Source: Caldilineaceae bacterium
GTDB lineage: Bacteria > Chloroflexota > Anaerolineae > Caldilineales > Caldilineaceae
Length of the DNA stretch: 64,000 bases
Direction of reading: 5' to 3'
Assembly: GCA_965204705.1 (NCBI GenBank)
Contig: CBDBFE010000001.1
Span: 35,827-99,826 of the forward strand
The notes below the pieces were generated by a model, which saw only the letters and a list, made by a program, of their open reading frames with translations, searched no databases and was not told where the DNA came from. Made by a program: the position numbers and the translations under genes. Positions 2,968-40,962 of the stretch are shown piece by piece. Numbering within the stretch: position 1 is the first letter of the stretch; each line of letters begins with the position of its first letter.

Positions 2968-3219
2968 TTAGGTCTTGTTGACAATTGGAGCAGGCCTCTT
3001 AAGAGCTGACAAATGCAAGCCCGCAGCTACCTCGCGCGACAGAAAAAGTGATTTCCCTAACCGTCCGCGGACCGGAAAGATCTTTTTCGCGTCCCTTCGC
3101 GCCTCTTCGCGGATCAAGAGCCGTTCTCCGCGCCCCTCCGTGTCCTCCGCGGACAAAAACGGTGTTCTCCGTGCCCTCCGTGGATCAAAAGCGGTTAGAA
3201 GTTCTCCGCGCCCCTCCGT
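2968..3219 (+). mobile_element. TIR-element family C, copy C1 (left end, core and short repeat payload), interrupted by MITE-A at 3220
   Basis: Left end TTAGGTCTTGTTGACAATTGG, then core CTTAAGAGCTGACAAATGCAAGCCCGCAGCTACC, then TTCGCG/CTCCGCGG-GA(T/C)CAAAA modules. The payload sequence stops abruptly where MITE-A begins. Confidence 0.6.
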
Positions 3220-3437
3220 CAGGGCGATTGCATCTAATTGGGTCACAAGACCCCGCGACACGACCTGATTCGAGCCAAACGCCTGAATAAGACGCCGAGA
3301 ACAGTGCAAATCATCAGGTTTTCGGCGACCGGAGATCGGCTTTTTTGGCCGAAAACGATTGACTATTGGTAGGGGCGCCCCTTGTGGGTGCCCTTCGTGG
3401 GATATTTTGGCGCCCGGATTTAGATGCGATTGCCCTG
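3220..3437 (+). mobile_element. MITE-A copy 1 (218 bp, non-coding)
   Basis: Starts CAGGGCGATTGCATCTAA and ends TTAGATGCGATTGCCCTG (18-bp terminal inverted repeat, 2 mismatches). Internal hairpin GTTTTCGGC-(20 nt)-GCCGAAAAC. No credible ORF. Confidence 0.7.
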
Positions 3438-3592
3438 CTACCTTGGCTGCCAGAGTATATAAACCCCACATAAGCGGTGTATACTGCCAGACAAAGGGTT
3501 TGAAATAACCCGGCGATTCGTGTCCCCGTTGTGAATGTATCCTGATGGCGGAAAGGCGCTGCCGGCCGGAATGCAAGAGCTCGCGTCAATGA

Positions 3593-6500
3593 ATGCAGGA
3601 AGGGACCCCTATGAAATACAGAGCGCCTGTGCTGACCGCGAAACCCCTGGACATCTTTGTTCTGGTCGCAATACTCGCGGCGCTGGCTCCATCCTCCCCC
3701 CGCACAGATAGTGTAGCGCATGCACAGACAGACGCCTCGGCAGTTCCCGACGCGCCGGCGCCGACTGTGGCGTCCACTGGAGAGACAACGGTCGAGCTCA
3801 GTTGGATGCCGGTCTCCGGCGCTGCCAGCTACGAGCTCTGGGTGTGGGACAATGTCAACGACTGGCAACGTCTTGACGACGGCAACTTGACGTCCACCTC
3901 CTACACCCACGAGGGACTGACCGCCGGGAGGACCTACTACTATGCCATCCGTGCCGTAAATGCCGCCGGCCGGGCAGGCGCATGGTCGGAATACCTGCCC
4001 GTAACCACGCCCGCGAGTGCGCCGCAGGCGCAAGATACACCGACGCCCACGCCGACAGCCGCTCAGCCGCCCACTTCTACAACCACACCGACGCCCGCGC
4101 CCGCGCCGCTTCCAGGACCGGAGCTGTCCGCACGGACGACAGAGAACGGCGTGGAACTGAGTTGGGCCGCGGTGCCGGGCGCAGAGCGCTACGAGCTCTG
4201 GACGTGGTGGGCAAGCGATACCGGCTGGCAGCGTCTTGACGACGGCAGCCTGACCGCCACCACCTATACCCACGAGGGACTTGCCGCCGGAAGGACCTAC
4301 CACTACGCGATCCGCGCCGTGGACGCCAGCGGTGTGCCGGGCGCATGGTCGGCGTTCGTGTCCGCGACCGCACCCGAGTCCTCGCAGCCCTTGGGGGCGC
4401 CGGCGCTGACGGCTGTGACCACGCTGACGACAACGGTCGAGCTCAGTTGGACGCCGGTCTCCGGTTCGGCCAGGTACGAGCTTTGGGTATGGTGGGACAG
4501 CGACCCCGGCTGGCAACGTCTGGATGACGGCAGCCTGACAGGCGCCTCCTACACCCACGAAGGACTGACCGCCGGAAGAAGCTACTACTACGCCGTCTGC
4601 ACCGTGGACGGCGGCGGCAACCGGGGCGCGTGCTCGGAGAACGTGTCCGCGACCGTGCCCGAATCCCCGGCAGTTCCGGTCGCGAACGAGCAGAGAGCCG
4701 CGCTGGTCGCCCTCTACCACGCGACCGGCGGCGCCAACTGGACGCAGAATGATAACTGGCTGAGCCAGCAGCCGCTCGCTGCCTGGCACGGCGTCGTCAC
4801 CGACGCTAAAGGACACGTGACCGAACTGCGCCTCGCAAATACAGGGTTGAGCGGGCCAATTCCGGATTTGAGCGCGCTGACCAGCCTCACGACGCTGTCC
4901 CTTGAGTCCAACCAGTTGCGCGGGCCAATCCCGGACCTGAGCGCCCTCACCGGCCTGATCTGGCTGGACCTCGGCGGCAACCAGTTGAGCGGCCCGATTC
5001 CGGATCTGAACGCACTGACCGGCCTCGCGAGGCTGTCCCTGGGCGACAATGGGTTGAGCGGACCGATTCCGGATCTGAGTGCCCTCACCAGCCTGACGAG
5101 GCTGTCCCTTGAGGCCAACCAGCTGGGCGGGCCAATTCCGGATCTGAGCGCCCTCACCAACCTGGCGGAGCTGGTCCTCACCGGCAACCAGTTGAGCGGG
5201 TCGATTCCGGATCTGAGCGCCCTCACCAACCTGACCAAGTTGCGCCTTAACGCTAACCGGCTGAGCGGGCCGATTCCGGACCTGGGCGCCCTCTCCAACC
5301 TGACCTACCTGAGCCTCGGCTTCAACCGGTTGAGCGGGCCGATTCCGGACCTGAGCGCCCTCACCAACCTGACAAAATTGCGCATCTGGCACAACGGGTT
5401 GAGCGGGCCGATTCCGGATCTGAGCGCCCTCACCAACCTGGAGGCGCTGGTCCTCACCGGCAACCATCTGAGCGGGCCGATTCCGGACCTGGGCGCCCTC
5501 ACCAACCTGACCAGGCTGGATCTCGGCTACAACGAGTTGACCGGGCCGATTCCGGACCTGGGCGCCCTCAGCAACTTGACGGAGCTGAACCTCACCCACA
5601 ACCAGCTGAGCGGTCCGATTCCGGACCTGGGCGCCCTCAGCAACTTGACGGAGCTGAACCTCACCCACAACCAGCTGAGCGGTCCGATTCCGGATCTGGG
5701 CGCCCTCACCAACCTGACGAAGCTGGACCTCAGCGACAACCGGTTGAGCGGTCCGATTCCGGACCTGGGCGCCCTCAGCAACCTGACAGAGTTGAACCTT
5801 GGCGTCAACGTGTTGAACGGGCCGGTTCCGGACCTGGGCGCCCTCACCAGCCTGGCCTCCCTGAACCTCTACGACAACCGGTTGAGCGGGCCGATTCCGG
5901 ATCTGAGCGCCCTCACCAACCTGACAGGGTTGTACCTGAATGTCAACGGGTTGAGCGGGTCGATTCCGGACCTGGGCGCCCTCACCAACCTGGCCGAGAT
6001 GACTCTCAGCGCCAACCGGCTGAGCGGCCCAATCCCCGATCTGAGCGCACTGGTCAATCTGACGTGGCTGTCTCTCGGTCACAACCGGCTGAGCGGGTCG
6101 ATTCCCGATCTGAGCGCACTGGTCAATCTGACGGGGCTGCACCTCAATAACAACCGGTTGAGCGGGTCGATTCCCGACCTGAGCGCTCTCATTAACCTGG
6201 CGAGCCTGTCCTTCGCAGGAAATCAGCTGTGCCTGCCTGAAGGCACGGACCTGTCCGGCCTGAGTGAGGCTGCGGCCTCTCACCTGCGGGGCCTGAATCT
6301 GCCATCCTGCGCGGGCGGACTGCCCCCGGTGACGCCGCAGACGCCGCAGACCCCACAGAACCCGGCCGCACCGGAGGAAAGAGCGGCGCTGATCGCACTC
6401 TACCGGGCAACCGACGGCGCCAACTGGGCGCGCAGCGAGAACTGGCTGAGCGATGCGCCGGTCGCTGCCTGGTACGGTGTTTTCACCGACGAAAGGGGTC

Positions 6501-7663
6501 GCGTAACCGGACTGGACCTCTCAACTAACCTGCTGCGCGGGCCGCTCCCGGATCTGAGTGCCCTTGCCAACCTGAAAGCGCTGGACCTCTCACGCAACGG
6601 GTTGAGCGGGCCGGTCCCGGACCTGGGGGCTCTCACCAACCTGACGAGGCTGGACCTCTCAGCTAACTTGCTGCGCGGACCGATCTCCGATCTGAGCGCC
6701 CTTGCCAACCTGAGAGAGCTGGACCTCGGCCACAACCGGTTGCGCGGGTCGATTCCAAATCTGAACGCCCTCACCAGCCTGACAAGGCTGGACCTGGGTG
6801 ACAACAGGTTGAGCGGACCGGTCCCGGAGCTGAGCGCTCTCACCAACCTGACGGAACTGCAACTCGGCTACAACCGGTTGAGCGGGCCGATCCCGGAGTT
6901 GGGGACTCTCACCAGCCTGACGAAGCTGGACCTCGGCTCTAACCGCTTGAGCGGGCCGGTCCCGGATCTGAGCGCTCTAACCGGCCTGACGGAGCTGGTC
7001 CTTCAGTTCAATCAGTTGAGCGGGCCGATTCCGGAGTTGGGGACTCTCACCAGCCTGACGTGGCTGAACCTCACAGCCAATCAGTTGAGCGGGCCGATTC
7101 CTGATTTGAGCGCCCTCACCAGCCTGCGCTATTTGTCCCTCGGCGACAACCTGTTGAGCGGATCGATTCCTGATTTGAGCGCCCTCATGAATCTGGTGGA
7201 TCTGTCCCTCGGTCACAACCAGTTGAGCGGGCCGCTTCCGGACTTGGGCGCCCTCATCAGCCTGACTTACCTGTACCTCGCCTCCAACCAGCTGAGCGGG
7301 CCGGTGCCGGATCTGGACGCCCTCACCAACCTGACCAGCCTCGACCTCTCATCCAATCAGCTGAGCGGGCCGGTGCCCGATCTGGATGCCCTCACCAACC
7401 TGACGAGCCTGCACCTCGGCTACAACCGGTTGAGTGGGTCGATTCCGGTCCTGGGCGCCCTCGCCAATCTGTCCTGGCTCTCCCTCAATCACAACCAGTT
7501 GAGCGGGCCGGTCCCGGACCTGGGCGCCCTCACCAATCTGACATACCTGGACCTCAGAGGCAATCTGTTGTGCCTGCCCGAAGGAGCGGTGTTGTCCGGT
7601 CTTAATCAAGCTGTGACCGCCCATCTGCATAGTCTTAATCTTCCGGCCTGTACGGAACGCTGA
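3593..7663 (+). CDS. Very large secreted FN3 + leucine-rich-repeat (LRR) surface protein
   Basis: ORF track 1356 aa; likely start ATG 3611 (MKYRAPV, GAAGGGA upstream). Hydrophobic signal-like N-terminus. Three FN3-like modules (VELSW.PV.GA..YELWVW...[11 protein letters not shown]). Two blocks (roughly 20 and 15 units) of 23-aa repeats L..L.L..N.LSGPIPDL.ALTN, each preceded by an ERAAL(V/I)ALY.AT.G.NW cap. Confidence 0.85.
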   Translation: MQEGTPMKYRAPVLTAKPLDIFVLVAILAALAPSSPRTDSVAHAQTDASAVPDAPAPTVASTGETTVELSWMPVSGAASYELWVWDNVNDWQRLDDGNLTSTSYTHEGLTAGRTYYYAIRAVNAAGRAGAWSEYLPVTTPASAPQAQDTPTPTPTAAQPPTSTTTPTPAPAPLPGPELSARTTENGVELSWAAVPGAERYELWTWWASDTGWQRLDDGSLTATTYTHEGLAAGRTYHYAIRAVDASGVPGAWSAFVSATAPESSQPLGAPALTAVTTLTTTVELSWTPVSGSARYELWVWWDSDPGWQRLDDGSLTGASYTHEGLTAGRSYYYAVCTVDGGGNRGACSENVSATVPESPAVPVANEQRAALVALYHATGGANWTQNDNWLSQQPLAAWHGVVTDAKGHVTELRLANTGLSGPIPDLSALTSLTTLSLESNQLRGPIPDLSALTGLIWLDLGGNQLSGPIPDLNALTGLARLSLGDNGLSGPIPDLSALTSLTRLSLEANQLGGPIPDLSALTNLAELVLTGNQLSGSIPDLSALTNLTKLRLNANRLSGPIPDLGALSNLTYLSLGFNRLSGPIPDLSALTNLTKLRIWHNGLSGPIPDLSALTNLEALVLTGNHLSGPIPDLGALTNLTRLDLGYNELTGPIPDLGALSNLTELNLTHNQLSGPIPDLGALSNLTELNLTHNQLSGPIPDLGALTNLTKLDLSDNRLSGPIPDLGALSNLTELNLGVNVLNGPVPDLGALTSLASLNLYDNRLSGPIPDLSALTNLTGLYLNVNGLSGSIPDLGALTNLAEMTLSANRLSGPIPDLSALVNLTWLSLGHNRLSGSIPDLSALVNLTGLHLNNNRLSGSIPDLSALINLASLSFAGNQLCLPEGTDLSGLSEAAASHLRGLNLPSCAGGLPPVTPQTPQTPQNPAAPEERAALIALYRATDGANWARSENWLSDAPVAAWYGVFTDERGRVTGLDLSTNLLRGPLPDLSALANLKALDLSRNGLSGPVPDLGALTNLTRLDLSANLLRGPISDLSALANLRELDLGHNRLRGSIPNLNALTSLTRLDLGDNRLSGPVPELSALTNLTELQLGYNRLSGPIPELGTLTSLTKLDLGSNRLSGPVPDLSALTGLTELVLQFNQLSGPIPELGTLTSLTWLNLTANQLSGPIPDLSALTSLRYLSLGDNLLSGSIPDLSALMNLVDLSLGHNQLSGPLPDLGALISLTYLYLASNQLSGPVPDLDALTNLTSLDLSSNQLSGPVPDLDALTNLTSLHLGYNRLSGSIPVLGALANLSWLSLNHNQLSGPVPDLGALTNLTYLDLRGNLLCLPEGAVLSGLNQAVTAHLHSLNLPACTER

Positions 7664-7857
7664 ATATGCGGCGGCGCCGGACCTGCCGCGGACGTGACGC
7701 CGACCATCGGTAAAAGAGAACGTCCTGCGCAGGACAGGCGCGCTTCACGCGTTCCAAAGGTCTTACAGAATCCGGGCGTAATGCAGGAGGCCCCCGCTGC
7801 CAGCGACGGCAACGGGGGCCTCCTGGTATGCGCACCCGATTTGGCGGCAGGAGATGG

Positions 7858-8004
7858 CAGGGCAATCGCCTCTGAATCCGGACGCCAGGACATCCCGCCA
7901 AGGGCGCCCCTGCTGTTTGCACTGTTTTCGGCGGTTCTTTCGGAGTTGGGCTCGAATCAGCTGGCGTCGCGGGGCCTTGGCCCAATTAGATGCAATCTCC
8001 CCGG
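7858..8004 (-). mobile_element. MITE-A copy, reverse orientation, central part deleted (147 bp)
   Basis: CAGGGCAATCGCCTCTGAATCCGGACGCC...CCCAATTAGATGCAATCTCCCC. Both ends align with the reverse complement of 3220..3437, and the hairpin segment is missing. Confidence 0.6.
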
Positions 8005-8229
8005 GGCTTCACAACCAAAGTTTTTGTGGAAACTGACGGGGCAGAAAGTCACATTCTTTATGAGGGCGGACCGTTCAAGACTGTAGAGCAAGCGCAGAAG
8101 TGGTGCGATGACAAATGGAACGCCCCCCGGAATCTGTCTGTGCGGCTACGGTATGCCCAGCTCGTCAACTTGTGGGAGATAAATCAATCGATTGGGGAAC
8201 TGCTGGAACTGACTGAGGCGCGCTGGTAG
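7990..8229 (+). CDS. Hypothetical small protein
   Basis: ORF track 79 aa (…ETDGAESHILYEGGPFKTVEQAQKWCDDKWN…), with non-repetitive protein-like composition. Its annotated start lies inside a MITE-A copy, so the true start is uncertain. Confidence 0.3.
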   Translation: MQSPRGFTTKVFVETDGAESHILYEGGPFKTVEQAQKWCDDKWNAPRNLSVRLRYAQLVNLWEINQSIGELLELTEARW

Positions 8230-8255
8230 TGTTGGGGACCCCTGCGGAATTTCGT

Positions 8256-8345
8256 TCGAAAACAGTGCAAACTATTGTAGGGGCGCCCCTTGTGGGTGCC
8301 CTTCGTGGGATATATTGGCGTCCGGATTTAGATGCGATTGCCCTG
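8256..8345 (+). mobile_element. MITE-A right-half fragment
   Basis: CGAAAACAGTGCAAACTATTGTAGGGGCGCCCCTTGTGGGTGCCCTTCGTGGGATATATTGGCGTCCGGATTTAGATGCGATTGCCCTG matches the right half of 8627..8864. Confidence 0.6.
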
Positions 8346-8349
8346 CATA

Positions 8350-8612
8350 TACCCCACTTTCAGGCCCTGTTCGATCCCTTCAATCAAGATCGTTTCTTAG
8401 CCGCAGGACGACACCTGGCAGCCGGCACGCCAAGAGCGGGCCATCGCCTGCACGGCCGCAGACCGCTTTATCCGGCCGCGCCAGCACTGCCCGCAAATTA
8501 ACCAACTTGGTGAATTTGGCACTATGCCGGCGGCCCTGACCGGAGGGAGGCCGGCCTCTATCTGGTGACCCTCGATGACCTGTGGGATTGGGAGCGGTGG
8601 GGTACGTGCTTG
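8350..8612 (+). pseudogene. Decayed DUF3102-gene copy
   Basis: Similarity by eye to 1830-2040 (…GACCGCTTTATCCGGCCGCGCCAGCA…AAATTAACCAACTTGGTGAATTTGGCAC…CTATCTGGTGACCCTCGATGACCTGTGGGATTGGGAGCGGTGGGG). The reading frame is broken across several track ORFs. Confidence 0.65.
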
Positions 8613-8626
8613 CTGCCTTTGCCGGT

Positions 8627-8864
8627 CAGGGCGATTGCATCTAATTGGGTCAAGACCCCACAGCACTACCTGATTCGAGCCAAACTCCTGAATAAGACGC
8701 CGAGAACAGTGCAAGTCATCGTGCGCGATCGCAAACTCTTAAGGTTTTCGGCGACCGGAGATCGGCTTTTTTGGCCGAAAACAGTGCAAACTATTGTAGG
8801 GGCGCCCCTTGTGGGTGCCCTTCGTGGGATATTTTGGCGCCCGGATTTAGATGCGATTGCCCTG
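8627..8864 (+). mobile_element. MITE-A copy 2 (238 bp)
   Basis: Same TIRs as copy 1 (CAGGGCGATTGCATCTAA ... TTAGATGCGATTGCCCTG) and the same central hairpin. Confidence 0.7.
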
Positions 8865-9394
8865 CTTTGCCGGCGCCGTGCGCTTGTCTGCGCTCACTGT
8901 GTCCCTCCCTGTTTGGCGCGTAGATTGTCCATCACTTGCCCCGCAATCTTTCTGTTCGGTTTGGCCGGCGCCGTGGACGCTTCCGCCGCTTGCATGGCCG
9001 CGGCCGCCGTTGGATAGTTCCTGCCCCGCCCTGTCTCTTTCCCTTGCAGCGTGCGTACAACGAAAGCCCACAGGCCGGAACGCGCCAGCGACACAACCGC
9101 CGCCCGCGTGCGATTGGCAAGCTCGCTGTTGATATAGTCCCCGCGCCGCGTCAATTTCCATCCCCGCATTGTTCCCCCCTCATGCTTGCCGGCGCGGGCC
9201 GGTTGCCGCGCCGGCGCTGTCTCAGCCTTCGGGCTGTCTCACACAAACGCCCGCGTCCTCACGACCTATGCCGACCATCCTCGGTCCGGCTTTACTTTTC
9301 CCTTTGCAGGCTGCGTACAACGAACGCCACAGGCCGGAACGCGCCAACGACACAACCGCCGCCCGCGTCCGGTTATGGTACGATAAAGACTATG

Positions 9395-9700
9395 AGCGAG
9401 GCAACTATCCGGCAAATACCTGGCCTTCAGGCCCCGTTCGATTCCTTCAATCAAGATTGGTTCCTGGTCACAGGACGACACTTGGCTGCCGGACCTGAAA
9501 GACGATAAAGGGACGGTCGAGGAAGCCTGTCCGGCGAGTGATATGTTGCTCCGGACCAGGCAGCAGCTACCACACGGGGAATGGCTGCCGGCACGCCAAG
9601 AGCGGGGCATCGCCTGCACGACCGCAAACCGCTTTATCCTACTGCGCCAGCAGTACTCGCAAATTAACCAAGTTGGTGAATTTGGCACTGTGTCGGCGGC
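9395..9700 (+). pseudogene. Decayed DUF3102-gene copy with associated upstream block
   Basis: GGTCGAGGAAGCCTG…TGTTGCTCCGGACCAGGCAGCAGC…CAAACCGCTTTATCCTACTGCGCCAGCAGTACTCGCAAATTAACCAAGTTGGTGAATTTGGCAC. It is frameshifted relative to 1681..2349. The upstream block (CCTTCAGGCCCCGTTCGATTCCTTCAATCAAGAT) is shared with 8350 and 14160. Confidence 0.65.
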
Positions 9701-9766
9701 CAGTCCCTTATGGTGAGCCCCAATCTTTGGCCCACGAAAAGGGGAATATGAGGATTAGACAATTCT

Positions 9767-10042
9767 GTGAACCAGTACATCCCGCACTTCATGGCTCTGC
9801 TCGTCGGCGGACTGGTCGGCTATGCGACGGGCAGCTATACTTTCGTCATGCTGGAGGGCGAGAGAATATCCTGGCGACTCAAGATAGCTGTTGCCGTGTT
9901 TGTGATGGCTGGCAGCTCGGGGATGATTGCCTTCCTGTTTCGAGAGCTGGCATTCGAGATTGCGATCTTCTACGCGCTCGGCTTCACCTTTGCGCTGGCC
10001 CTGTTCAGCATGGGAGACCGTATCCCATGCGGCGACACGTGA
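9767..10042 (+). CDS. Small integral membrane protein
   Basis: ORF track 91 aa, with three hydrophobic helix-length segments (ALLVGGLVGYATGSYTFV, IAVAVFVMAGSSGMIAFLF, IAIFYALGFTFALALF). It lies directly upstream of the lipoprotein gene. Confidence 0.45.
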   Translation: MNQYIPHFMALLVGGLVGYATGSYTFVMLEGERISWRLKIAVAVFVMAGSSGMIAFLFRELAFEIAIFYALGFTFALALFSMGDRIPCGDT

Positions 10043-10054
10043 ACCTGGCTTCCA

Positions 10055-11823: not shown

Positions 11824-11830
11824 GCATTGT

Positions 11831-15023: not shown

Positions 15024-15220
15024 CAGGGCTCGTTGACGGTTGGCTGAACCGCGATTTGCGGGAGCAAAAGGAGGCTGATCCGCGCATTCACGCAACGGAC
15101 TTTCCCGTGGTCTTCGCGGCCCTTCGTGGACAAAACGCTTTCACCGGGACCCTTCGCATGACTTCGCGGATTAATCGGTTTCGATTTTGAACGACCTCCC
15201 CGAAATGTCAACGAAACCTG
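15024..15220 (+). mobile_element. TIR-element family C, short copy C7 (197 bp)
   Basis: Left end CAGGGCTCGTTGACGGTT and right end AAATGTCAACGAAACCTG (inverted). Interior has CTTCGCGG/CCTTCGTGGACAAAA modules. Confidence 0.55.
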
Positions 15221-22107: not shown

Positions 22108-22285
22108 CTAGGTCCCGTTGCCAATTGGCGACAGCCACTTAAGAGCTGACAGATGCAAGCCCTCAGCTACCTTGCGCGACAGACCCTGACCGTCCGCGGA
22201 CCGGAAAGATCTTCTTCGCGCGCCTTCGCGCCTCTTCGCGGATCAAAAAAGATGTTCTCGGTGACCCTCCGTGGATAAGAAGCAG
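22108..22285 (+). mobile_element. TIR-element family C, copy C2 (left end + core, short payload; right end not recognisable)
   Basis: CTAGGTCCCGTTGCCAATTGG…CTTAAGAGCTGACAGATGCAAGCCCTCAGCTACC…TTCGCGG modules. Confidence 0.55.
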
Positions 22286-22447
22286 ACTGATTCCGGCCCA
22301 TATTCATGCGACTCACTTTCTGCTTTGGGTCAAGCCGCCGCCTTGTCAAACCGATTGTGCAGAAACAAACATCACCTGCCGGTAATCATGCTGACAAGTG
22401 ATGCGCCCAAGCCTCGTACTGCCAATTCTGAAGAGGGGTTATCGATT

Positions 22448-23632
22448 ATGCACTTCAAAAACGCAACGCGATACCTTGTCGTTGTATGTGCGTTAATCGC
22501 AACCGCTTGGGCTATTTCGAGTTGTGATGGCCCGGAACCAGAACCAACCTCCAGTCTGTCTGGTCGTGTAGGTCAGGCGCAACCAACATTCACCGCCACG
22601 TCAGAATACGTAGTCACGCCAACTGTCCCATCCACACCGACTCCGGAAAGTCAAACAACATTTACAGTCAATCGTGCTGTAGTGAATGTGCGGCAGGGTC
22701 CGGGAACGAACTTCGGGGTCGTTGACCAGGTGAAGGAAGGTCAGAAGTTTGACGCCAACGGCACAAACCGTAATGGAGACTGGTTGCGATTCTGTTGTGT
22801 CGGTGGTCGAGACGGATGGATATACAAACCACTGGTAATCATTGAAGACTCAGAATTACCGGTTGTTGTTGTGGCTATTCCTGCCGCCTTGCCCTCGCCC
22901 ACATCACCCCCTGCTCCCAACCCAACGCGGCCGACCCATACGGACTCCGATCCTTTGGCTGGTATTTTGATTGTTCCAGAAAACCGCTGCTCGCCATACG
23001 ATCCGGACGATTACCCCTACCCACAATCTGTAGAACCCCAAATCATTGCCCAGATGGGTGGGATTGTTTACGGACCGTACTCAGGTCGATATTTCCGCGA
23101 TCGTGGCGAGACCGACATCGAACATATTGTAGCGAGAAGCGAAGCACATGACAGCGGAATGTGTGGCAGAGATGCTCAGGAGCGGAGGAACTTTGCTCGC
23201 GACCTGCTCAACCTTACACTCGCAGCCCCATCTTTGAATCGCCGTCAAAAATCGGCTAAGGACGTGGCTGAATGGTTGCCGCAATTGAATGAATGCTGGT
23301 TTGTCAATCGGGTGGTTGAAGTTAAGAGGAAGTACAATCTCTCAATGGACCCTGGCGAGGCGGATGCTGCCAGAAGGGTATTGGCAAACTGCTCATCCTT
23401 TGAAATGATCATCTATGCCCGAACAGAATCCGCCCCACCACCAACCGCAACACCTGCCCCATCTGTGGACTCAGGACAAACAAATTGGTTAGCGTCATGC
23501 GATTCCAATAACAATAATCGCATAACGTGCGCCGAAGCTGAGGCTTGCGGGATAAGTCATCCAGTTCCGAGTTCACATCCTGCCTACCAATACATGAACG
23601 ACCGCGACAATGATGGACAGGTCTGCGAATAA
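22448..23632 (+). CDS. Secreted lipoprotein nuclease: SH3b-like + HNH/DUF1524-like nuclease + Excalibur Ca-binding domain
   Basis: Track ORF 22271..23632. Likely start ATG 22448 (MHFKNATRYLVVVCALIATAWAISSC, lipobox). VNVRQGPGTNFGVVDQVKEGQKF…GDWL (SH3b-like). TDIEHIVARSEAHDSG…NLTLAAPSLNRRQKSAKD..EW (H-N-type nuclease core). C-terminal DRDNDGQVCE (Excalibur-type DxDxDGxxCE). Confidence 0.65.
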   Translation: MHFKNATRYLVVVCALIATAWAISSCDGPEPEPTSSLSGRVGQAQPTFTATSEYVVTPTVPSTPTPESQTTFTVNRAVVNVRQGPGTNFGVVDQVKEGQKFDANGTNRNGDWLRFCCVGGRDGWIYKPLVIIEDSELPVVVVAIPAALPSPTSPPAPNPTRPTHTDSDPLAGILIVPENRCSPYDPDDYPYPQSVEPQIIAQMGGIVYGPYSGRYFRDRGETDIEHIVARSEAHDSGMCGRDAQERRNFARDLLNLTLAAPSLNRRQKSAKDVAEWLPQLNECWFVNRVVEVKRKYNLSMDPGEADAARRVLANCSSFEMIIYARTESAPPPTATPAPSVDSGQTNWLASCDSNNNNRITCAEAEACGISHPVPSSHPAYQYMNDRDNDGQVCE

Positions 23633-23643: not shown

Positions 23644-23865
23644 CTAGGTCCCGTTGCCAATTGGCGAAAGCCTCTTAAGAGCTGACAGATGCAAGCCCTC
23701 AGCTACCTTGCGCGCCAGACCCTGACCGTCCGCGGACCGGAAAGATCTTTTTCGCGCCCCTTCGCGCCTCTTCGCGGATCAAAAGGTGTTCTCCGCGCCC
23801 CTCCGCGTCCTCCGTGACCCTCCGTGGACAAAAAGCAGTTAGACCTGCTTCGTGCTCCTTCGACG
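23644..23865 (+). mobile_element. TIR-element family C, copy C3
   Basis: CTAGGTCCCGTTGCCAATTGG…CTTAAGAGCTGACAGATGCAAGCCCTCAGCTACC…, near-identical to C2. Degenerate right end TTCGACGAGAAACC. Confidence 0.55.
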
Positions 23866-25546: not shown

Positions 25547-26282
25547 CAGGGATCGTTGACATTTGCCGAAGACCATTCAAAATGTGACAAACACAAGCGC
25601 TCAGTGACCCCGCAGGACGGAAAAGGCGCCCCTTCGCGGATCAAAGAAAGCGATAAAGCCGTTCTCCGCGTCCCTCCGCGGACAAAAAAGGTGTTCTCCG
25701 TGCCCTCCGCGGATCAAAAGCAGTTAGATATTCTCCGCGCCCCTCCGTGTCCTCCGTGGACAAAAAGGTGTTGAAGTTCTCCGCGCCCTCCGTGGATCAA
25801 GAGCAGTTAAGATGTTCTTCGCGCTCCTTCGCGTCCCTTCGCGGATCAAAGAAAGCAGTAAAGCCGTTCTCCGCGTCCCTCCGCGGATCAAAAGCAGTTA
25901 GATGTTCTCCGCGCCCCTCCGTGTCCTCCGTGGACAAAAAGGTGTTGAAGTTCTCCGCGCCCTCCGTGGATCAAGAGCAGTTAAGATGTTCTTCGCGCTC
26001 CTTCGCGTCCCTTCGCGGATCAAAGAAAGCAGTAAAGCCGTTCTCCGCGTCCCTCCGCGGATCAAAAGCAGTTAGATGTTCTCCGCGCCCCTCCGTGTCC
26101 TCCGTGGACAAAAAGGTGTTGAAGTTCTCCGCGCCCTCCGTGTCCTCCGTGGACAAAAAGGTGTTGAAGTTCTCCGCGCCCTCCGTGGATAAAAAGTAGT
26201 TAGATCTGCTTCGTGCCCCTTTGTGGATGGAACAGGTTTTGCCGTGGATGTCCCGGTTCAAGCAAACGTCAACGAGTCCTGG
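25547..26282 (+). mobile_element. TIR-element family C, copy C4, carrying a 174-bp higher-order tandem repeat (25620-26210)
   Basis: Left end CAGGGATCGTTGACATTT and right end AAACGTCAACGAGTCCTGG. The interior repeats with exact 174-bp offset (for example GAGCAGTTAAGATG at 25801 and 25975). It fills the whole gap between the SIMPL start (25517) and the channel stop (26286). Confidence 0.7.
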
Positions 26283-26285
26283 TCC

Positions 26286-27119
26286 CTACTCCCTACCCCC
26301 TGCCCCCTGCCTCAAACGTTCCTCCAGGCGGTCGAGCGTTTGCCTGGCTGAGCGCAGCTCCCGCAGGCTTTCCTCTGTCGACGCCGGCGTTTCCAACGGA
26401 CGCGGGCGCCAGCGCTCCTGTATCACCTCCGCCAGGTTTCTTACCACCACGGCTACGAACAGATTGGCTACGATATAGGCGCTGATGATCACAAAACTGA
26501 TGAAATAGACCCACGCCATCGGCTCTGCGCCGCTGACGGCGATCATGATGTTGCCCCAGTCATCCATCGTCATGATCTGAAACAGCGACAGAATCGAAAC
26601 GCCCAGGTTCCCCCAGTGTGTCGGGTCATGCTCGCCGAAGTTGTGGTACCCGACAATGCCGTACGCATAGAGGATGATGCCCAGCAGGACCACGACGTGC
26701 CCCATGCTTGGTATCGAGCGAATCAGCGCCACCAGGATCACGCGCAGCTCCCGGACCGTCGAAAGGCCCCGCAGGAGACGCAGCAAGCGCACCAGCAAGA
26801 CCAGCATCACATTGATCGTGAGGGCCGGCCACACCAATAGGGTGAGCAGCATGAAGCTGATTGCCAGGAAATCGAAGAGGTTCCATCCAACCCGGAAATA
26901 CCGGTCGACCCTTGGCCACAGCGCAAACATCCTGAGAAGCACATCCAGAAGGAGCGCTACCAGCGTCAGGAACCAGAACAGCGCCGCCATCCACAGCACG
27001 AATGGGACCAGGCGGTCGAAAGTCGTCACCCCCAGCAAAAGGGCGCTTCCCGCAATGAGAACCACCAGGATGTATTCAAACTTCCGCGAGTGGGCGATAC
27101 GGTGCGCTATCCCTCGCAT
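26286..27119 (-). CDS. Voltage-gated ion channel, single-domain BacNav/NaChBac-like
   Basis: ORF track 277 aa, six hydrophobic segments. S4 LVRLLRLLRGLSTVR (Arg every third residue). Pore LSLFQIMTMDDWGNIM. C-terminal coiled coil. Confidence 0.8.
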   Translation of the reverse strand: MRGIAHRIAHSRKFEYILVVLIAGSALLLGVTTFDRLVPFVLWMAALFWFLTLVALLLDVLLRMFALWPRVDRYFRVGWNLFDFLAISFMLLTLLVWPALTINVMLVLLVRLLRLLRGLSTVRELRVILVALIRSIPSMGHVVVLLGIILYAYGIVGYHNFGEHDPTHWGNLGVSILSLFQIMTMDDWGNIMIAVSGAEPMAWVYFISFVIISAYIVANLFVAVVVRNLAEVIQERWRPRPLETPASTEESLRELRSARQTLDRLEERLRQGAGGRE

Positions 27120-29747: not shown

Positions 29748-30438
29748 CAGGTCTTGTTGACAATGGGCGCAGGCCGCTTAAGAGTTGACAAGTGCAAGCC
29801 CTCAGCTACCTCACGCGACAAAAAAGGTGTCCTCCCCTTACTCGGCAGTTCACTGAAAACTAAAAACCGGCTACTAAAAACTGCCCCTCCGCGCCCTCCG
29901 CGGACAAAAAACTGTACTCCCCTTACTCGGCAGTTCACTGAAAACTAAAAACCGGCTACTAAAAACTGCCCCTCCGCGCCCTCCGCGGACAAAAAACTGT
30001 ACTCCCCTTACTCGGCAGTTCACTGAAAACTAAAAACCGGCTACTAAAAACTGCCCCTCCGCGTCCTCCGCGGACAAAAAAGGTGTACTCCCCTTACTCG
30101 GAGTTCACTGAAAACTAAAAGCCGGCTACTAAAAACTGCCCCTCCGCGCCCTCCGCGGACAAAAAAGTGTACTCCCCTTACTCGGCAGTTCACTGAAAAC
30201 TAGAAACCGGCTACTAAAAACTGCCCCTCCGCGCCCTCCGCGGACAAAAAACTGTACTCCCCTTACCCGGCAGTTCACTGAAAACTAGAAACCGGCAACT
30301 AAAAACTGCCCCTCCGCGCCCTCCGCGGACAAAAAAGTGTACTCCCCTTACTCGGCAGTTCACTGAAAACTAAAAACCGGCTACTAAAAACTGCCCCTCC
30401 GCGTCTATCCCGGTTCAAGCAAAAGTCAACGAGCCCTG
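29748..30438 (+). mobile_element. TIR-element family C, copy C5, carrying 7 tandem 85-bp units
   Basis: Left end CAGGTCTTGTTGACAATGGG plus core CTTAAGAGTTGACAAGTGCAAGCCCTCAGCTACC. Right end AAAAGTCAACGAGCCCTG. CACTGAAAAC recurs at 29851, 29936, 30021, 30106, 30191, 30276 and 30361 (period 85). Confidence 0.75.
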
Positions 30439-31006: not shown

Positions 31007-31007
31007 C

Positions 31008-32412: not shown

Positions 32413-32432
32413 CTTTTCTCTTCTGGTAGAAC

Positions 32433-33230
32433 TTCTCCGCGCCCCGCCGCGTCCGCCGCGGACAAAAAAGGTGTACTCCCCTTACTCGGCAGTTCACTGA
32501 AAACTAAAAACCGGCTACTAAAAACTGCCCCTCCGCGCCCTCCGCGGACAAAAAAGGTGTACTCCCCTTACTCGGCAGTTCACTGAAAACTAAAAACCGG
32601 CTACTAAAAACTGCCCCTCCGCGCCCTCCGCGGACAAAAAAGGTGTACGCCCCTTACTCGGCAGTTCACTGCAAACTAAAAACCGGCTACTAAAAACTGC
32701 CGTTCCGCGTCCTCCGCGGACAAGAAAAGTGTACTCCCCTTACTCGGCAGTTCACTGAAAACTAAAAACCGGCTACTAAAAACTGCCGTTCCGCGTCCGC
32801 CGCGGACAAAAAAGGTGTCCTCCCCTTACTCGGCAGTTCACTGAAAACTAAAAACCGGCAACTAAAAACTGCCGTTCCGCGTCCTCCGCGGACAAGAAAA
32901 GTGTACGCCCCTTACTCGGCAGTTCACTGCAAACTAAAAACCGGCTACTAAAAACTGCCGTTCCGCGTCCTCCGCGGACAAGAAAAGTGTACGCCCCTTA
33001 CTCGGCAGTTCACTGAAAACTAGAAACCGGCTACTAAAAACTGCCGTTCCGCGTCCTCCGCGGACAAGAAAAGTGTACGCCCCTTACTCGGCAGTTCACT
33101 GAAAACTAAAAACCGGCTACTAAAAACTGCCGTTCCGCGTCCTCCGCGGACAAAAAAGGTGTACGCCCCTTACTCGGCAGTTCACTGAAAACTAAAAACC
33201 GGCTACTAAAAACTGCCGTTCCGCGCCCCG
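32433..33230 (+). repeat. Tandem array of 9 units of 86 bp (same unit family as 29817-30406), without recognisable TIRs
   Basis: CACTG(A/C)AAAC recurs at 32495, 32581, 32667, 32753, 32839, 32925, 33011, 33097 and 33183 (period 86). It fills the gap between the stop of 33234..34310 and the start of 31999..32412. Confidence 0.8.
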
Positions 33231-33233
33231 CAG

Positions 33234-34310: not shown

Positions 34311-34370
34311 ACGTTATATCTCCCCATTCAGGTTACGTGTACAGCCGTTTCTCAACTACAACATCCCAAT

Positions 34371-34440
34371 CTAGCAGACTTTTCGTGCCAAAGGGGTGAC
34401 AGAAGAGTGTGTTTTGTACCAATATGGTGTCAGTTTTTGA
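34371..34440 (-). promoter_or_regulatory. Conserved non-coding block (second copy of 18261..18332)
   Basis: The reverse complement reads TCAAAAACTGACACCATATTGGTACAAAA…TTCTGTCAC…GGCACGAAAAGTCTGCTAGA. It lies 60-130 nt upstream of the P3 start, in the divergent intergenic region shared with the hybrid kinase. Confidence 0.5.
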
Positions 34441-34565
34441 ACGGCGGTTTTTAGTCCTCGGCCCTGTTCGGTTATAGTGAACTGCCGGGTACGCGAAAAT
34501 CCCCCTTTGCACGCGGGAGAACCGCGTTTCCTGCCTTAGGGTCGGGAGAGGGCGCGGCGCTTTGA

Positions 34566-36968
<2,403 letters not shown>

Positions 36969-37098
36969 AGCCCCCGGCAGCGCCCGCCATGAATGAACAC
37001 AGCCGCACTGCCGGCGCCCTCTTCATCTTGTCCGCGTAAAGGAAGACACGGTGAAATGAAGCGAACTGCAAGGAACGGCCCTGTCTTCCCGGAACCCT

Positions 37099-37917
37099 TT
37101 GCGTCAACTCTCCGTTATCAGGGTGAACTCGGCCTCGAAGGCCGCGTGCCCTGAGAGATTCCCCAAGAAGCCTGAGGTGAAAGAACGGATGAAATCGATT
37201 ATTGACCCCTCGTCGGACGTCGCCGCATCCGAAGTCAGGGGAGGCCGGTTAAGGCAGATCGTTCTGGCGCTGGCTATCCTCCTTCTCACACTGGTAGTGT
37301 CTGGGGCAATCTTTGGCGCCAGAGCCTTCCTGGAGGGCCAAGAGATTAGGGAATATGTTGGCGGGCCTTACGGTTCGCAGCTGCTCTATCTGCAGGGGTG
37401 CGAGTTGGGTGCGTCGGGCGGGGGACAGACGACCGCTTCGCAAACTCTGGAGGAGCAGATCGAATTTTGCCGGCGAACGGTATCCTCACGCGCCGGTTAC
37501 TATGTTTACGATTTCAATATCAAGAGATCGGTCGCTCTTTCCAGGGAGGATATGGATCTTTGGCGGCAGTACGCGGTTCTCGCCTTCCCCGGGTCTCTCG
37601 GCGAAGCGGTCGGCAACAGCGAAACCAACCAATTCAACAGAATCGTTCCCTTTGAGGCGTTCCCAGGATTTGAGTACGACTGCGTTCTGGACGATAACCA
37701 ATCTGAAGCCAGCTGCAAGGTTGCGACAGCGTCATGCGAATTCAGCGGCGAAGCGATCCGGTGCACCGTGTTCAACCCGCAATCCGAAAGCGCTGAACTA
37801 CACCTCATCGAACGGGACAAAAAACTCGATCTCTTCGTGCCGCACGGGTTCATCACAGGACCTGATCTGTATAAAATGCTTAAGCCCCGCTTCTTTCCGT
37901 CCCTCGACTCGATGTAG
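37099..37917 (+). CDS. Hypothetical membrane-anchored/secreted protein
   Basis: ORF track 272 aa (start possibly MKSIIDPSS at 37189). One TM/signal-anchor ILLLTLVVSGAIFGA and several Cys residues in the soluble part. Confidence 0.45.
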   Translation: MRQLSVIRVNSASKAACPERFPKKPEVKERMKSIIDPSSDVAASEVRGGRLRQIVLALAILLLTLVVSGAIFGARAFLEGQEIREYVGGPYGSQLLYLQGCELGASGGGQTTASQTLEEQIEFCRRTVSSRAGYYVYDFNIKRSVALSREDMDLWRQYAVLAFPGSLGEAVGNSETNQFNRIVPFEAFPGFEYDCVLDDNQSEASCKVATASCEFSGEAIRCTVFNPQSESAELHLIERDKKLDLFVPHGFITGPDLYKMLKPRFFPSLDSM

Positions 37918-38269
37918 ACAGGCACAGGCGCCCTCCTCTGCCGGACTGCCCATGCTGAAGCAAAGCGCTCCCGGGAAGGTTCTCCGCTCAGGAGCGGCTC
38001 GCTTTTGACCGCCGCTGTGCGTAGCGCGCCTGCACGCCTTCCGCAAAGGCACAAAAAATGTGGGCGGGCACGAATGCGCAGTTGCGTTTGCCGTAGTCGC
38101 CGCTCAGCCACCGGGGCGAGTAGCGGGCGGCGACACAGGACCTGATTTCGTCGGTCTGAATGGGGCCGGCGGAGCGCCGGACGCGGCTGTCGACGACAAG
38201 GACGTCACCGGCATCGCCGCAGACCTGCTCTTCGTGGGGAATCGGGCTGAGGCCATGGTACAAACATCG

Positions 38270-38340
38270 CGGGCAGTTCACTGAAAACTAAAAACCGGCT
38301 ACTAAAAACTGCCTTTCCGCGTCCCTCCGCGGACAGAAAG
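38270..38340 (+). repeat. Solo copy of the 85/86-bp unit
   Basis: CGGGCAGTTCACTGAAAACTAAAAACCGGCTACTAAAAACTGCCTTTCCGCGTCCCTCCGCGGACAGAAAG. Confidence 0.75.
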
Positions 38341-38371
38341 GGCCCTTCTGCGCTGTTCTCATCCGACTGCT

Positions 38372-38827
38372 TCAGGGGGCGACAGGCGGTACCAGAGACG
38401 CATCCTCATTGCCCTGCAGTCGCCGTATCTCCTCGGCCAGTTCAACAAAACGGCCATAGCTGCCGAAACGATACGTTGTTCGTTCGTCTATCGAGACTCG
38501 TCTCCACCTCTCTTTGCCGGTCCCCTTGCGACAAGCTACAGGACCACTCGCCGGCGCCGCTTCCACGATGCCCAGCCTGATAAAATCGAAGACCAGCTCG
38601 GCAACGAGCTCAGGCGTCATGCTTCCGTGACGGTAGCCGCCCGACCTCCTGGCAATCTGGGTATGCGTTGCCGAAAACTCTCTGCCGCCGCACGCGTCTG
38701 CCATCTCCGCCATACACGTAAGCAGCATCCGGTATTGCGGGTACATCAAATCGAGCAGTCCGCTCCCTCTCAACGCCCCGGTTACGTTCCCAAAACTGTG
38801 TTCACCCATCCGTGCCCTCATCATCAT
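38372..38827 (-). CDS. Hypothetical protein
   Basis: ORF track 151 aa, non-repetitive. Possible HTH around FSATHTQIARRSGG. No family recognised. Confidence 0.4.
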   Translation of the reverse strand: MMMRARMGEHSFGNVTGALRGSGLLDLMYPQYRMLLTCMAEMADACGGREFSATHTQIARRSGGYRHGSMTPELVAELVFDFIRLGIVEAAPASGPVACRKGTGKERWRRVSIDERTTYRFGSYGRFVELAEEIRRLQGNEDASLVPPVAP

Positions 38828-39007
38828 CAGGCTGAACAGCTGTCTCGCCGGTCGATCTGCGTAATTTGACTTCAGCAGCGACTCTCAAATCAGATCTCGC
38901 AGCTTCCCCCGAAAGTACCGGAAACTGGGAGATGCGTTGTTCTCCACATCCATCAGCGGGGCGATTTTCGTCGCCCATGCCGACTTCTCCCTGCCCACAG
39001 CCTGCCC

Positions 39008-39458
39008 TCACCTTCCCGCCAGCGCTCTTGAGCCGCCCGGAAATACAGCGTCCCTGCCCTGCGGATACGCCCCCTTGATCGCGGTCATGTCGCCGAGTAG
39101 CCAGGCTTCGCCTTCTTCGATCGCAATACAGAAGCGGGTGTCCGGTTTAGGATCGCACGCATGGAGGACTGCGAAGAGCTCCTGGCGAAACGTCTTCAGA
39201 CAGTTGTCATCCAGGTCGCAGACCACGATCACCGCCGCCGCGCCCGCGTGCATCGCAGGCATCTTCCACGCCGGACTTCAGAGCATCGGCCAGGAACCCG
39301 AACGCATCAAACAGGGCGCTCTTGCCGGCCCCGTTCTTGCCGATAACCGCCGTCAAGGCGGTGAGCGGCTGGCCTTCGGGTTGATTCCACAGACGGCCCA
39401 GGGTCACATCCCTGAGCGCCTTGAAATTCCTTACTCGGAACCCCTGAATCCTGGCCAT
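39008..39458 (-). pseudogene. Remnant of an AAA/OLD-like ATPase + DUF4276 gene pair (large internal deletion)
   Basis: Track ORF 39207..39506 contains MARIQGFRVRNFKALRDVTLG…LTAVIGKNGAGKSALFDAFGFLADAL (ATPase N-terminus with Walker A) and then loses sense. Track ORF 39008..39262 has VIVVCDLDDNCL…IAIEEGEAWLLGD, which I associate with DUF4276. Confidence 0.5.
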
Positions 39459-39692
39459 CTTGCAGCCCCCGTTTTCTACACGGTAGGACAGGTCAATCCA
39501 AGACAAATCGGCCTTGGCGCGTCGGGACTACTTGGTCTCGGCGTCCAACCTCCCTATTGTCCTTGGGAAGTCGTATAATGTAAATCATGGCTGAGTCCTC
39601 TCCTCCCCTGTGCGGACCTTCTTTTGTTATCGCACACCGCCCGCAAGTTGTAGAATGCTTCATGTACGGAAGCACGCCTTGATGGGAGACGC

Positions 39693-40010
39693 ATGAGGGA
39701 CACAGAGACTGCGGTGCCCGCCCAGGGTAGGCAAACCACCATGCCCCCGCGCCGCCCTCGCGCAGAGACGGCCCGCTTGGGCGACGAGATATATGAGCGG
39801 GACATCCGTCCGCAGGTCGAGGTGGACCACCACGGGGAATATGTCGCCATCGACGTTGACAGCGGAAGCTGGGCCATCTCCGACGACCTTCGGGCGGCAG
39901 CCAAGCGTCTGCGGACGCAGCGCCCCGGCGCTGTTGACGTCTGGCTGCTTCGGGTTGGATACCGGGCCCTGCATCACTTTGGGGGTCGTCCCCTTCGGAG
40001 CGCCGGGTGA
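39693..40010 (+). CDS. Small protein preceding the aspartyl-protease gene
   Basis: ORF track 105 aa. …YERDIRPQVEVDHHGEYVAIDVDSGSWAISDD…. Stop overlaps the GTG of the next ORF (GTGA). Confidence 0.5.
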   Translation: MRDTETAVPAQGRQTTMPPRRPRAETARLGDEIYERDIRPQVEVDHHGEYVAIDVDSGSWAISDDLRAAAKRLRTQRPGAVDVWLLRVGYRALHHFGGRPLRSAG

Positions 40011-40367
40011 TAGAGGGCGTGGTGAACGCCGCCTATGAGCCGGTAGTGGTCCTGACCGTACATGGTCCATCGGGGCAGGCAACTGAAATCGAGGCGATAA
40101 TAGACACCGGCTTCAACCGTGACGCCTGCGTTGGCGGCGGAATTGGAACTATCCCTTGAGGGCGCGAGCCGGGCAACCCTTGCCGGCGGCAGCGAGGTGA
40201 CCTTCGATCTTTACGACGTTGCGGTGCTCTGGGACGGTCAGCCGAGATATGTCCTGGCCGGTGCTGCCGATACGACGCCTCTCGTGGGTATGCGCATGCT
40301 GGACCGCCACAACCTGAACATCGACGTAGAGAACGCAGGCCGCGTCGTCATCCAGGCCAAAGAGTAG
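40007..40367 (+). pseudogene. Retropepsin-like (clan AA) aspartyl protease, frameshifted
   Basis: Own translation from GTG 40007: VIEGVVNAAYEPVVVLTVHGPSGQATEIEAIIDTGFN (D-T-G motif), then premature stop. The rest is in another frame (track ORF 40119..40367: …TPALAAELELSLEG…LVGMRMLDRHNLNIDVENAGRVVI). Frame break near 40100-40120. Confidence 0.55.
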
Positions 40368-40544
40368 CCGCACTCCTCCTTTCCCGCCGCAGCGGGCATT
40401 GCCCCGATCACTTGGGGAAAATTACCCCAGGGCAACTGCTGAGCTTGGCCCCGGAAACTGGACCACAAGCTACAGTTCATAGTAGAGCATCAATCTCCCC
40501 TCGCAAATCTGCCGGATTTGTCTTCGACGAGGATTTCAAAAGGC

Positions 40545-40642
40545 GGCCCAGGGTCACATCCCTGCGCGCCTTGAAATTCCTTACTCGGAACCCCTGAATC
40601 CTGGCCATCTTGCAGTCCCTATTTGCTACACGGTAGGACAGG
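40545..40642 (-). repeat. Second copy of the 5' end and upstream region of the ATPase remnant (compare 39388-39492)
   Basis: GGCGGCCCAGGGTCACATCCCTG(C/A)GCGCCTTGAAATTCCTTACTCGGAACCCCTGAATCCTGGCCATCTTGCAG…CTACACGGTAGGACAGG. Confidence 0.65.
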
Positions 40643-40680
40643 GATCACGTCCCGTCTGCCCTGAACGCCAGTCGTAATGC

Positions 40681-40962
40681 CTAGGGTTCGTTGACGTTTG
40701 ACGGTATAGCGATCCGCGGTAGCAAAGTGCGGCTTATCCCTGAAGAACTGCGCAACTGCGAAATGAAAACTTGATAGGCCCCAGGTGTTCTCCGCGGCCC
40801 TCCCTGGCCCTTCGTGGACAGAGAAAGGTGTTCTTCGTGGCCCTTAGTGGCCCTTCGTGGACAAAAAGGTGTTCTCCGTGGTCCTCTGTGGCCCTCCGTG
40901 GACAAAAAAGGTGTTTTGCTCTGGCTTGTCTCACAAAAAAGGCAAACGTCAACGAGTCCTAG
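40681..40962 (+). mobile_element. TIR-element family C, copy C6 (282 bp)
   Basis: Left end CTAGGGTTCGTTGACGTTT and right end AAACGTCAACGAGTCCTAG (inverted repeat of about 17-19 bp). Interior has CCTTCGTGGACA(A/G)A(A/G)AAGGTGTTCT modules. It sits inside a duplicated sequence whose other copy (39481-39500) is uninterrupted. Confidence 0.7.

Follow-up and report, generated by a model that had tools for sequence, protein, structure and literature searches.

Terminal inverted repeats (TIRs) that enclose internal tandem repeats are known from eukaryotic TIR/foldback elements such as Tetris of Drosophila virilis and pearl of oysters. Among bacteria, the mycobacterial interspersed repetitive units (MIRUs), reportedly described by Supply et al. 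in 1997 and 2000, are tandem intergenic units. In the pneumococcal BOX elements, boxA and boxC are placed around a variable tandem of boxB and the ends resemble those of ISSpn2, while BOX elements of Streptococcus suis have other end modules around the same boxB (PMC3049150). Here we analysed a stretch of 64,000 nucleotides ("the window", G000:C2:35827-99826) on a 125.8-kb contig, C2, of an uncultured Caldilineaceae bacterium (Chloroflexota), in which a first-pass annotation had recognized seven copies of a TIR-bounded repeat with a tandem payload. These copies are very probably part of a superfamily of non-autonomous transposons (MITEs, miniature transposable elements with inverted repeats) found throughout an uncultured Caldilineaceae genus. 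The superfamily is real and mobile, and it has an identifiable partner insertion sequence (IS). What is new is the replication polarity of the loci that carry its inner repeat, hereafter the module. This polarity is robust and was unexpected.

Tetris and pearl resemble the Caldilineaceae elements in that inverted ends enclose an expandable tandem array able to seed satellite-like arrays, but they are eukaryotic and have no relation to the direction of replication. MIRUs are tandem units of 40-100 bp whose copy number varies at orthologous loci, as it does in the arrays without TIRs described below. However, MIRUs follow the direction of operons and carry small open reading frames (ORFs), whereas the unit lengths found here are not multiples of three and the units are oriented to replication. 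The first-pass annotation regarded a MITE with such an interior as undescribed, but the BOX elements of S. pneumoniae have this design. By analogy with them, the layout is that of boxA-boxB(n)-boxC, an architecture that has been described previously. Between the ends is a subfamily leader (alpha, beta or gamma) followed by a variable number of ~31-45-bp modules. Like BOX, the elements are non-coding and intergenic, have fixed TIR-like end modules that resemble a resident IS, and hold an inner module of ~45 bp whose tandem number varies from genome to genome; the different ends around one inner module in S. suis are paralleled here by alpha, beta and gamma (PMC3049150). The likeness drawn is one of architecture, and no relation in sequence is expected. 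Unlike BOX, the elements described here reside in a Chloroflexota host, have an IS5-family partner and a TA duplication at CTAG, and share their inner module with many arrays that lack ends. Their orientation by replichore is near-absolute, while none was found stated for BOX in the consulted portion of PMC3049150.

The host genome, G000, comprises 6.18 Mb with a GC content of 0.59 and a completeness of 97.7 %, and its contigs include C1 (5.91 Mb) and C3 (142 kb) besides C2. All seven stretches are present where the first-pass annotation placed them (Table 1), and the termini of the superfamily read 5'-GG(N3)CGTTGAC(A/G)TTTG. With up to 3 mismatches, AGGNNNCGTTGACRTTTG matched the window 15 times, compared to 3.1±2.0 times in shuffled sequences, and none of 100 shuffles reached 15. 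The TIRs are thus conserved far beyond chance. The claimed ends make up 11 of these 15 matches, with seven left ends on the plus strand and four right ends on the minus strand. The proposal that all copies are bounded by TIRs was correct for four of the seven (15024, 25547, 29748 and 40681, named after their start positions) and ~25 copies in the genome keep both ends. Copies 22108 and 23644 are truncated on the right, whereas copy 2968 is interrupted by an unrelated MITE, MITE-A.

Contrary to their initial description as one family, the seven copies split by leader into three subfamilies. Alpha consists of copies 2968, 22108, 23644 and 29748, which have the reported shared core CTTAAGAGCTGACA..TGCAAGCCC.CAGCTACC, and of copy 25547, in which the core is diverged (nhmmer E=7e-5); the subfamily as a whole is defined by the alpha core CTTAAGAGCTGACA..TGCAAGCCCTCAGCTACC. 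Beta has the leader GACGGTATAGCGATCCGCGG and includes copy 40681, while copy 15024 belongs to gamma. Eleven full copies of the 80-nt alpha left end were found genome-wide, five on C2 (all plus), four on C3 (all minus) and two on C1, and the beta leader has 34 matches in G000. The copies are short, non-coding and dispersed, with lengths of 193-736 bp, and they occupy intergenic positions near gene ends, as had been noted. The repeat was found in 19 of the 24 sampled genomes of the Caldilineaceae genus and in none of 16 genomes from other families of the class. An exact-pattern scan of named genomes with the alpha core produced matches in Caldilineaceae metagenome-assembled genomes only. A megablast search of 8.5 kb against a plasmid database returned no match, and the module was absent from the viral contigs searched.

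Mobility was most apparent in the sister species G022, where a 286-bp gamma-type element had at least 27 matches of equal score. The 12 copies that we fetched were near-identical and all flanked by TA..TA, 11 of them in the context cTA..TAg, and their flanks gave the insertion-site consensus ACTAGT. We joined the flanks of one G022 copy and searched them across the genus. They matched without interruption, at 94 % identity, in G000 (C1:4143876-4144236) and in G045, and the junction in G000 reads ...cactcaCTAGccgcg..., which is CTAG. This clean empty site shows a TA duplication at CTAG and sets the element apart from fixed orthologous sequence. For the superfamily in general, insertion at CTAG (consensus ACTAGT) would duplicate TA, and 11 MITE copies and most IS copies in G000 are flanked by TA..TA.

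A gamma insertion of greater age is found at C1:294829, with a permease-like gene on each side. This copy is intact in G000, G020 and G012. Its orthologues in G048 and G007 keep 8-10 nt of the left TIR, and of those in G050 and G041 nothing but the right 45 nt is left. Considering this decay and the near-identical copies in G022, the family holds both old, decaying copies and young ones. Old loci that are common to several species would also fit a fixed ancestral intergenic sequence that has inverted ends by chance and does not move. This explanation is refuted by the clean filled/empty pair and by the dispersed G022 matches, with their near-identical, TA-flanked copies, and the presence of a partner IS speaks against it as well, so that we give it practically no credence. 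Conserved TIRs, insertion polymorphism between species and the partner IS together bear out the MITE reading.

No transposase had been associated with the repeats, and there is none inside the window. However, a genome-wide scan for the terminus revealed pairs ~825 bp apart, which represent eight copies of one element, all on C1, with the termini of the MITEs at both ends. An autonomous element with matching TIRs is therefore present in G000, and it was also found in G022. The element has two overlapping reading frames, the first with PF13340 (DUF4096, 1e-22) and the second with PF01609 (DDE_Tnp_1, 4e-15). The two ORFs align to positions 3-113 and 120-258 of NCBIfam NF033580 (IS5 family transposase), scoring 114.9 and 151.8 bits, both above the cut-off of 110. 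Sister species contain one to three copies each of an IS with matching ends, and the IS of G022 has the same right end (GTCAACGGAACC, followed by TA) as the G022 MITE. Short TIRs that start with GG, together with duplication of the 2 bp TA at CTAG or TTAG, are typical of the IS427 group. The partner IS has these traits in addition to its length, the distribution of DUF4096 and DDE_Tnp_1 over two frames and the NF033580 match, and it may belong to the two-ORF IS427/IS1031-like type of ISfinder.

Because the ends are shared, we infer that the IS transposase moves the MITEs in trans. Unlike in IS5-derived MITEs, the interiors did not arise from the IS by deletion, except for approximately the first 30 nt. 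IS5-type termini also bound a 535-bp MITE without modules, which occurs at C1:677606-678141 and ~9 other places in G000. At three further sites (C1:5717838-5717859, 3389194-3389215 and 3682603-3682625), a beta MITE sits in the TTAG of a solo 21-bp remnant of the IS left end, which results in tandem termini, from self-targeting or from a duplicated end.

The tandem payloads reported earlier were confirmed with Tandem Repeats Finder, which gave periods of 31-45 bp. Copy 25547 additionally contained a 174-bp higher-order unit repeated 2.6 times (98 % matches), and copy 29748 an 85-bp unit. The module consists of two to three sub-repeats CC(C)T(C/T)CG(C/T)GG followed by GA(C/T)-A4-6-GGTGTT, ~31-45 bp in all. 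Beta copies that have the same ends range from 229 to 598 bp and contain 1-11 modules. The units are arranged head to tail with no unique spacers, ruling out a CRISPR array.

Two points escaped the first-pass annotation, namely that the payload also occurs as arrays without TIRs and that it is co-oriented with the replichore. One orthologous TIR-less array, at C1 ~2,283,300-2,283,600, is intergenic and lies downstream of a short-chain-dehydrogenase-like gene. It contains no modules in G007, one in G001, G006, G021 and G044, three in G009, and ~5-8 in G043, G045, G049, G000 and G023. Its orientation is constant across species and TIRs are never present. With 0 to ~8 copies at a single TIR-less locus, the module thus acts as a minisatellite by itself. 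Module number would change in place, by slippage or unequal exchange, and the modules persist without TIRs, as minisatellites, at conserved intergenic sites. On C1 of G000, module arrays are clustered in islands at 1.117-1.125, 1.564-1.576, 2.283-2.293, 2.973-2.990, 4.725-4.807 and 5.276-5.282 Mb. The GC skew in these islands is 0.13-0.18, well above the genome average (~0.10).

Several observations weigh against a mobile MITE superfamily as the whole explanation. A right end is missing in three of the window copies, and several of them are flanked by CA..TG and not TA..TA. Since TA is palindromic, TA..TA flanks alone cannot separate a duplication from an extension of the TIR, and the duplication rests on a single clean empty site. 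Mobilization in trans is likewise deduced from the shared ends. Most chromosomal arrays lack TIRs, therefore the modules do not depend on the MITE for their persistence, and they may predate the transposon ends or be independent of them. Finally, plain DDE cut-and-paste transposition predicts random orientation, which was not seen.

Instead, module-bearing loci follow a replichore orientation rule. The module motif on C1 lies on the plus strand at ~0.25-2.8 Mb and on the minus strand at 2.8-5.8 Mb. The cumulative GC skew runs in parallel, with a minimum at 2.84 Mb and a plateau that extends from 5.8 to 0.3 Mb. The plus strand has a skew of ~-0.10 and +0.08 in the two replichores, whichever strand the genes lie on, which marks it as a replication-type skew. 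Matches within 5 kb were merged into loci, and each locus was set against the GC skew over 100 kb of flanking sequence, provided that |skew| was at least 0.02. The C-rich strand of the module was the locally C-rich strand in 46 of 47 loci (binomial p=7e-13), and the sole exception, at 0.227 Mb, has a skew of -0.02. Matches to the beta leader obeyed the rule in 22 of 22 cases outside the zones of weak and inverted skew. The inverted zone is a 120-kb segment at 4.14-4.26 Mb of C1. Because genes on both strands show the inversion of skew, this segment (C1:4,140,000-4,260,000) is probably an inversion. The MITEs tied to it agree with the local skew, one being a beta copy in G000 and the other the G022 copy that has its empty site in this segment.

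The same pattern was found in other genomes. In G022, where at least 27 copies were matched, plus-strand copies occupy 1.2-3.48 Mb and minus-strand copies 3.62-5.58 and 0.09-0.385 Mb, with one exception, and the skews of sampled 20-kb stretches agree in sign over these arcs. G024 and G016 have a two-arc strand pattern like that of G000. On metagenome contigs with the module, the rule was obeyed by 32 of the 33 loci that have 3 kb of flank or more (p=8e-9); these contigs stem from a small number of samples and lack full independence. In G000, dnaA is located at 5.479 Mb, far from the skew minimum, and a search for the origin and terminus found no cluster of DnaA boxes and no convincing dif site; "leading" and "lagging" are assigned here by the usual G>C convention only. 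Two further sequence types in G000 are strand-biased. The heptamer microsatellites (TGACCAC)n / CCCTACT on C1, for example at 26283-26310 of the window, are ~90 % replichore-oriented, and GCTGGCGG, one base away from the Chi sequence of Escherichia coli, is among the most skewed 8-mers, with 79 % on the G-rich strand.

Polarity does not extend to every element with these ends. The IS and the module-less 535-bp MITE, which share the ends and of which the MITE served as an unoriented control, do not follow the skew rule (8 vs 5), and the contrast with the orientation of the module loci is significant (Fisher p=0.0012). Conversely, MITE-A, which has unrelated TIRs and two module-like sub-repeats, obeys the rule in 17 of its 19 copies on C1. 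Therefore, the determinant of polarity appears to be the module. Accounting for both patterns, all module-bearing units would share a single orientation with respect to the GC skew of replication type, and polarity would go with the module and not with the ends.

Other possible causes were ruled out. Gene direction is not the cause, as 49 % and 51 % of genes are on the plus strand in the two replichores, and two arrays in the window are antisense to both of their neighbouring genes, which are real (SIMPL, Ion_trans). Avoidance of head-on transcription is excluded by unbiased tRNA genes and by two 16S genes that oppose each other; in this organism, such avoidance is therefore weakly selected for. 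Base composition of the whole element does not account for polarity either, since the GC skew of beta, gamma and MITE-A is ~0 or slightly positive. An asymmetric target site is ruled out by the palindromic consensus ACTAGT.

Transcription from the element itself is a further alternative. The left TIR was originally said to contain the -35 hexamer TTGACA. This is exact in three copies, while the others read TTGCCA or TTGACG. If the copies were promoter or small-RNA cassettes, TTGACA at the left end would drive transcription through the payload or into the next gene. Consistent with this, alpha left ends have kept TTGACA-16-TAAGAG both inside a species and from one species to another, and the downstream gene is co-oriented in 27 of 33 chromosomal arrays. 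However, this excess stems largely from one island at 4.72-4.83 Mb, and on C2 and C3 such co-orientation is seen in only 1 of 11 arrays. TAAGAG also lacks the T at position 6, a sigma-70 scan (16-18 nt spacer) called only the diverged 25556 copy and not TTGACA-16-TAAGAG, and Rfam 15 had no match in the window at gathering score. Moreover, every terminus contains TTGAC, the right ends and the two IS ends among them. Because the hexamer belongs to the transposase-type terminus of all families and the IS, the case for TTGACA as a promoter element is weak. Nor would avoidance of head-on transcription explain the polarity, given that rRNA, tRNA and protein genes are unbiased. Altogether, we find such cassettes improbable.

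Strong replichore orientation is a hallmark of single-stranded DNA (ssDNA) transposition, and the modules hold short palindromes (GTCCGCGGAC), as might be expected of REP/RAYT-like or IS200/IS605-like elements that move as single strands. Yet no Y1 transposase (PF01797) was found in a six-frame search of G000, given its 97.7 % completeness, while six control genomes gave matches. The elements also have true TIRs and a TA duplication rather than subterminal hairpins, and ssDNA folding of the modules is weak and alike on both strands, with no clear asymmetry (z -2.4 to +1.4). Movement as single strands is thus very improbable.

To cause the polarity, selection could act on copies once they are inserted, or the insertion step could be coupled to the replication fork. 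Coupling to the fork has been proposed for several IS families through the beta clamp and for transposition of Tn7 by TnsE, and new copies would then land in one orientation. The young, near-identical copies in G022, with at least 27 matches, already obey the rule in 26 of 27 cases. In addition, a replication-linked orientation bias has been documented for DDE ISs, including an IS5 subgroup in Firmicutes, and was reported with a beta-clamp model (PMC3971601). This sits poorly with the unbiased IS and module-less MITE, which share the ends, and with MITE-A, which obeys the rule with unrelated TIRs. The beta ends are near-identical and would give a symmetric transposition complex, yet beta is oriented. 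Furthermore, the survey of Gomez et al. 2014 reports no biased family outside three phyla, and Chloroflexota is not among these (PMC3971601). We therefore consider fork-coupled insertion doubtful. The IS200/IS605 elements, Tn7 with TnsE and the IS families of that survey resemble the present elements in an orientation tied to fork direction, but no Y1 enzyme was found here, and the bias is absent from the IS with shared ends and present in MITEs with unrelated ends.

That one orientation of a polar array, probably bound by protein, is selected against is a serious possibility, a little short of an even chance. A related suggestion, which we hold only tentatively and think rather doubtful, sees the ~40-bp module as a cis-element polar to replication, tolerated or inserted in only one orientation relative to the fork. 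At least two unrelated MITE families would spread it, conserved intergenic sites would retain it as minisatellites, and a directional protein associated with the fork could bind its arrays. As a specific case of such selection, the module might belong to the host, as a set of sites for a directional protein such as a Ter/Tus-like barrier or a replisome or segregation factor, with the wrong orientation purged and the MITEs merely spreading it. Orientation does follow the module and not the ends, as the oriented beta, gamma and MITE-A all carry the sub-repeats that the unoriented IS and 535-bp MITE lack, and arrays are kept at orthologous intergenic sites across species. The 9-11 bp sub-repeats and the A-tracts every ~31-45 bp would fit binding on one face of the helix. 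A host cis-element is nevertheless unlikely. It has no known binding protein, and its highly variable copy number is unlike that of a tuned site. Outside the elements, the sub-repeat is also unskewed, unlike KOPS or Chi, with 0.54 on the C-rich strand compared to 0.58±0.07 for shuffled-word controls, which rules out a polar word of the KOPS or Chi type.

The features of the window are listed in Table 1. Besides its position in the window, MITE-A occurs at 26 other places in G000 and is also nested in the alpha copy at C2:107474. A 15-bp inverted repeat, GTGGGGGTTATATAC / GTATATAAACCCCAC at 2950-2964 and 3456-3470, brackets alpha copy 1 together with MITE-A and may represent the ends of another small element. 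The left halves of alpha copies 2 and 3 are 93 % identical and form direct repeats on either side of one gene (22271-23632) with GmrSD_C, SH3 and Excalibur domains. Alpha-like copy 4 is located between two minus-strand genes (SIMPL, Ion_trans), and relatives show no synteny at the locus upstream of SIMPL. The paralogous site at 39470..39530 was rejected as a clean empty site for the beta copy, given the extra sequence in the filled copy. The array at 32447..33225 was not listed previously.

Table 1. Copies of the superfamily and related features in the window.
Feature	Position in window	Strand	Composition
Alpha copy 1	2969..3219	+	TA, left TIR GGTCTTGTTGACAATTGG, 60-nt core, ~4 modules; cut by nested MITE-A, no right TIR
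MITE-A, unrelated TIR family (CAGGGCGATTGCATCTAA)	3220..3437	+	Nested in alpha copy 1; two module-like sub-repeats
Gamma copy, complete	15024..15220	+	CA, then GGGCTCGTTGACGG ... GTCAACGAAACC, then TG; one or two modules
Alpha copy 2	22109..22285	+	Left TIR mutated to GTTGCC, core, modules; no right end
Alpha copy 3	23645..23865	+	Left TIR (GTTGCC), core, modules; truncated within alpha right-end region
Alpha-like copy 4, complete	25547..26281	+	Diverged leader, ~12 modules, right TIR GTCAACGAGTCC
Alpha copy 5, complete	29748..30438	+	Core, 7x 85-bp unit (hairpin unit + half-module), right TIR
TIR-less array, payload without transposon ends	32447..33225	+	86-bp unit, 9.1 copies
Paralogous site without beta insert	39470..39530	+	Also without ~40 bp found ahead of the insert in the filled copy
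Beta copy, complete	40682..40961	+	TA, then GGGTTCGTTGACGTTTGACGGTATAGCGATCCGCGG leader, 3 modules, GTCAACGAGTCC, then TA

A BOX-like MITE with an identifiable IS5-family partner extends a known kind of element to the Chloroflexota, and its variable arrays and insertion sites provide typing markers for uncultured Caldilineaceae. For specialists, the surprise is an orientation by replichore that is near-absolute despite ends of the cut-and-paste type and that is tied to the payload and not to the ends, in a genome whose genes, tRNAs and rRNA operons show no strand preference. If selection is the cause, the module would be a new kind of polar chromosomal signal, and if it is the binding array of a directional fork protein, it would be a transposon-borne "architecture-imparting" sequence in Chloroflexota. 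If insertion is biased, the elements would reveal a new link between DDE transposition and the fork. Either way, the orientation of the module is a marker of replichore arcs and of inverted segments in the genomes of this genus.

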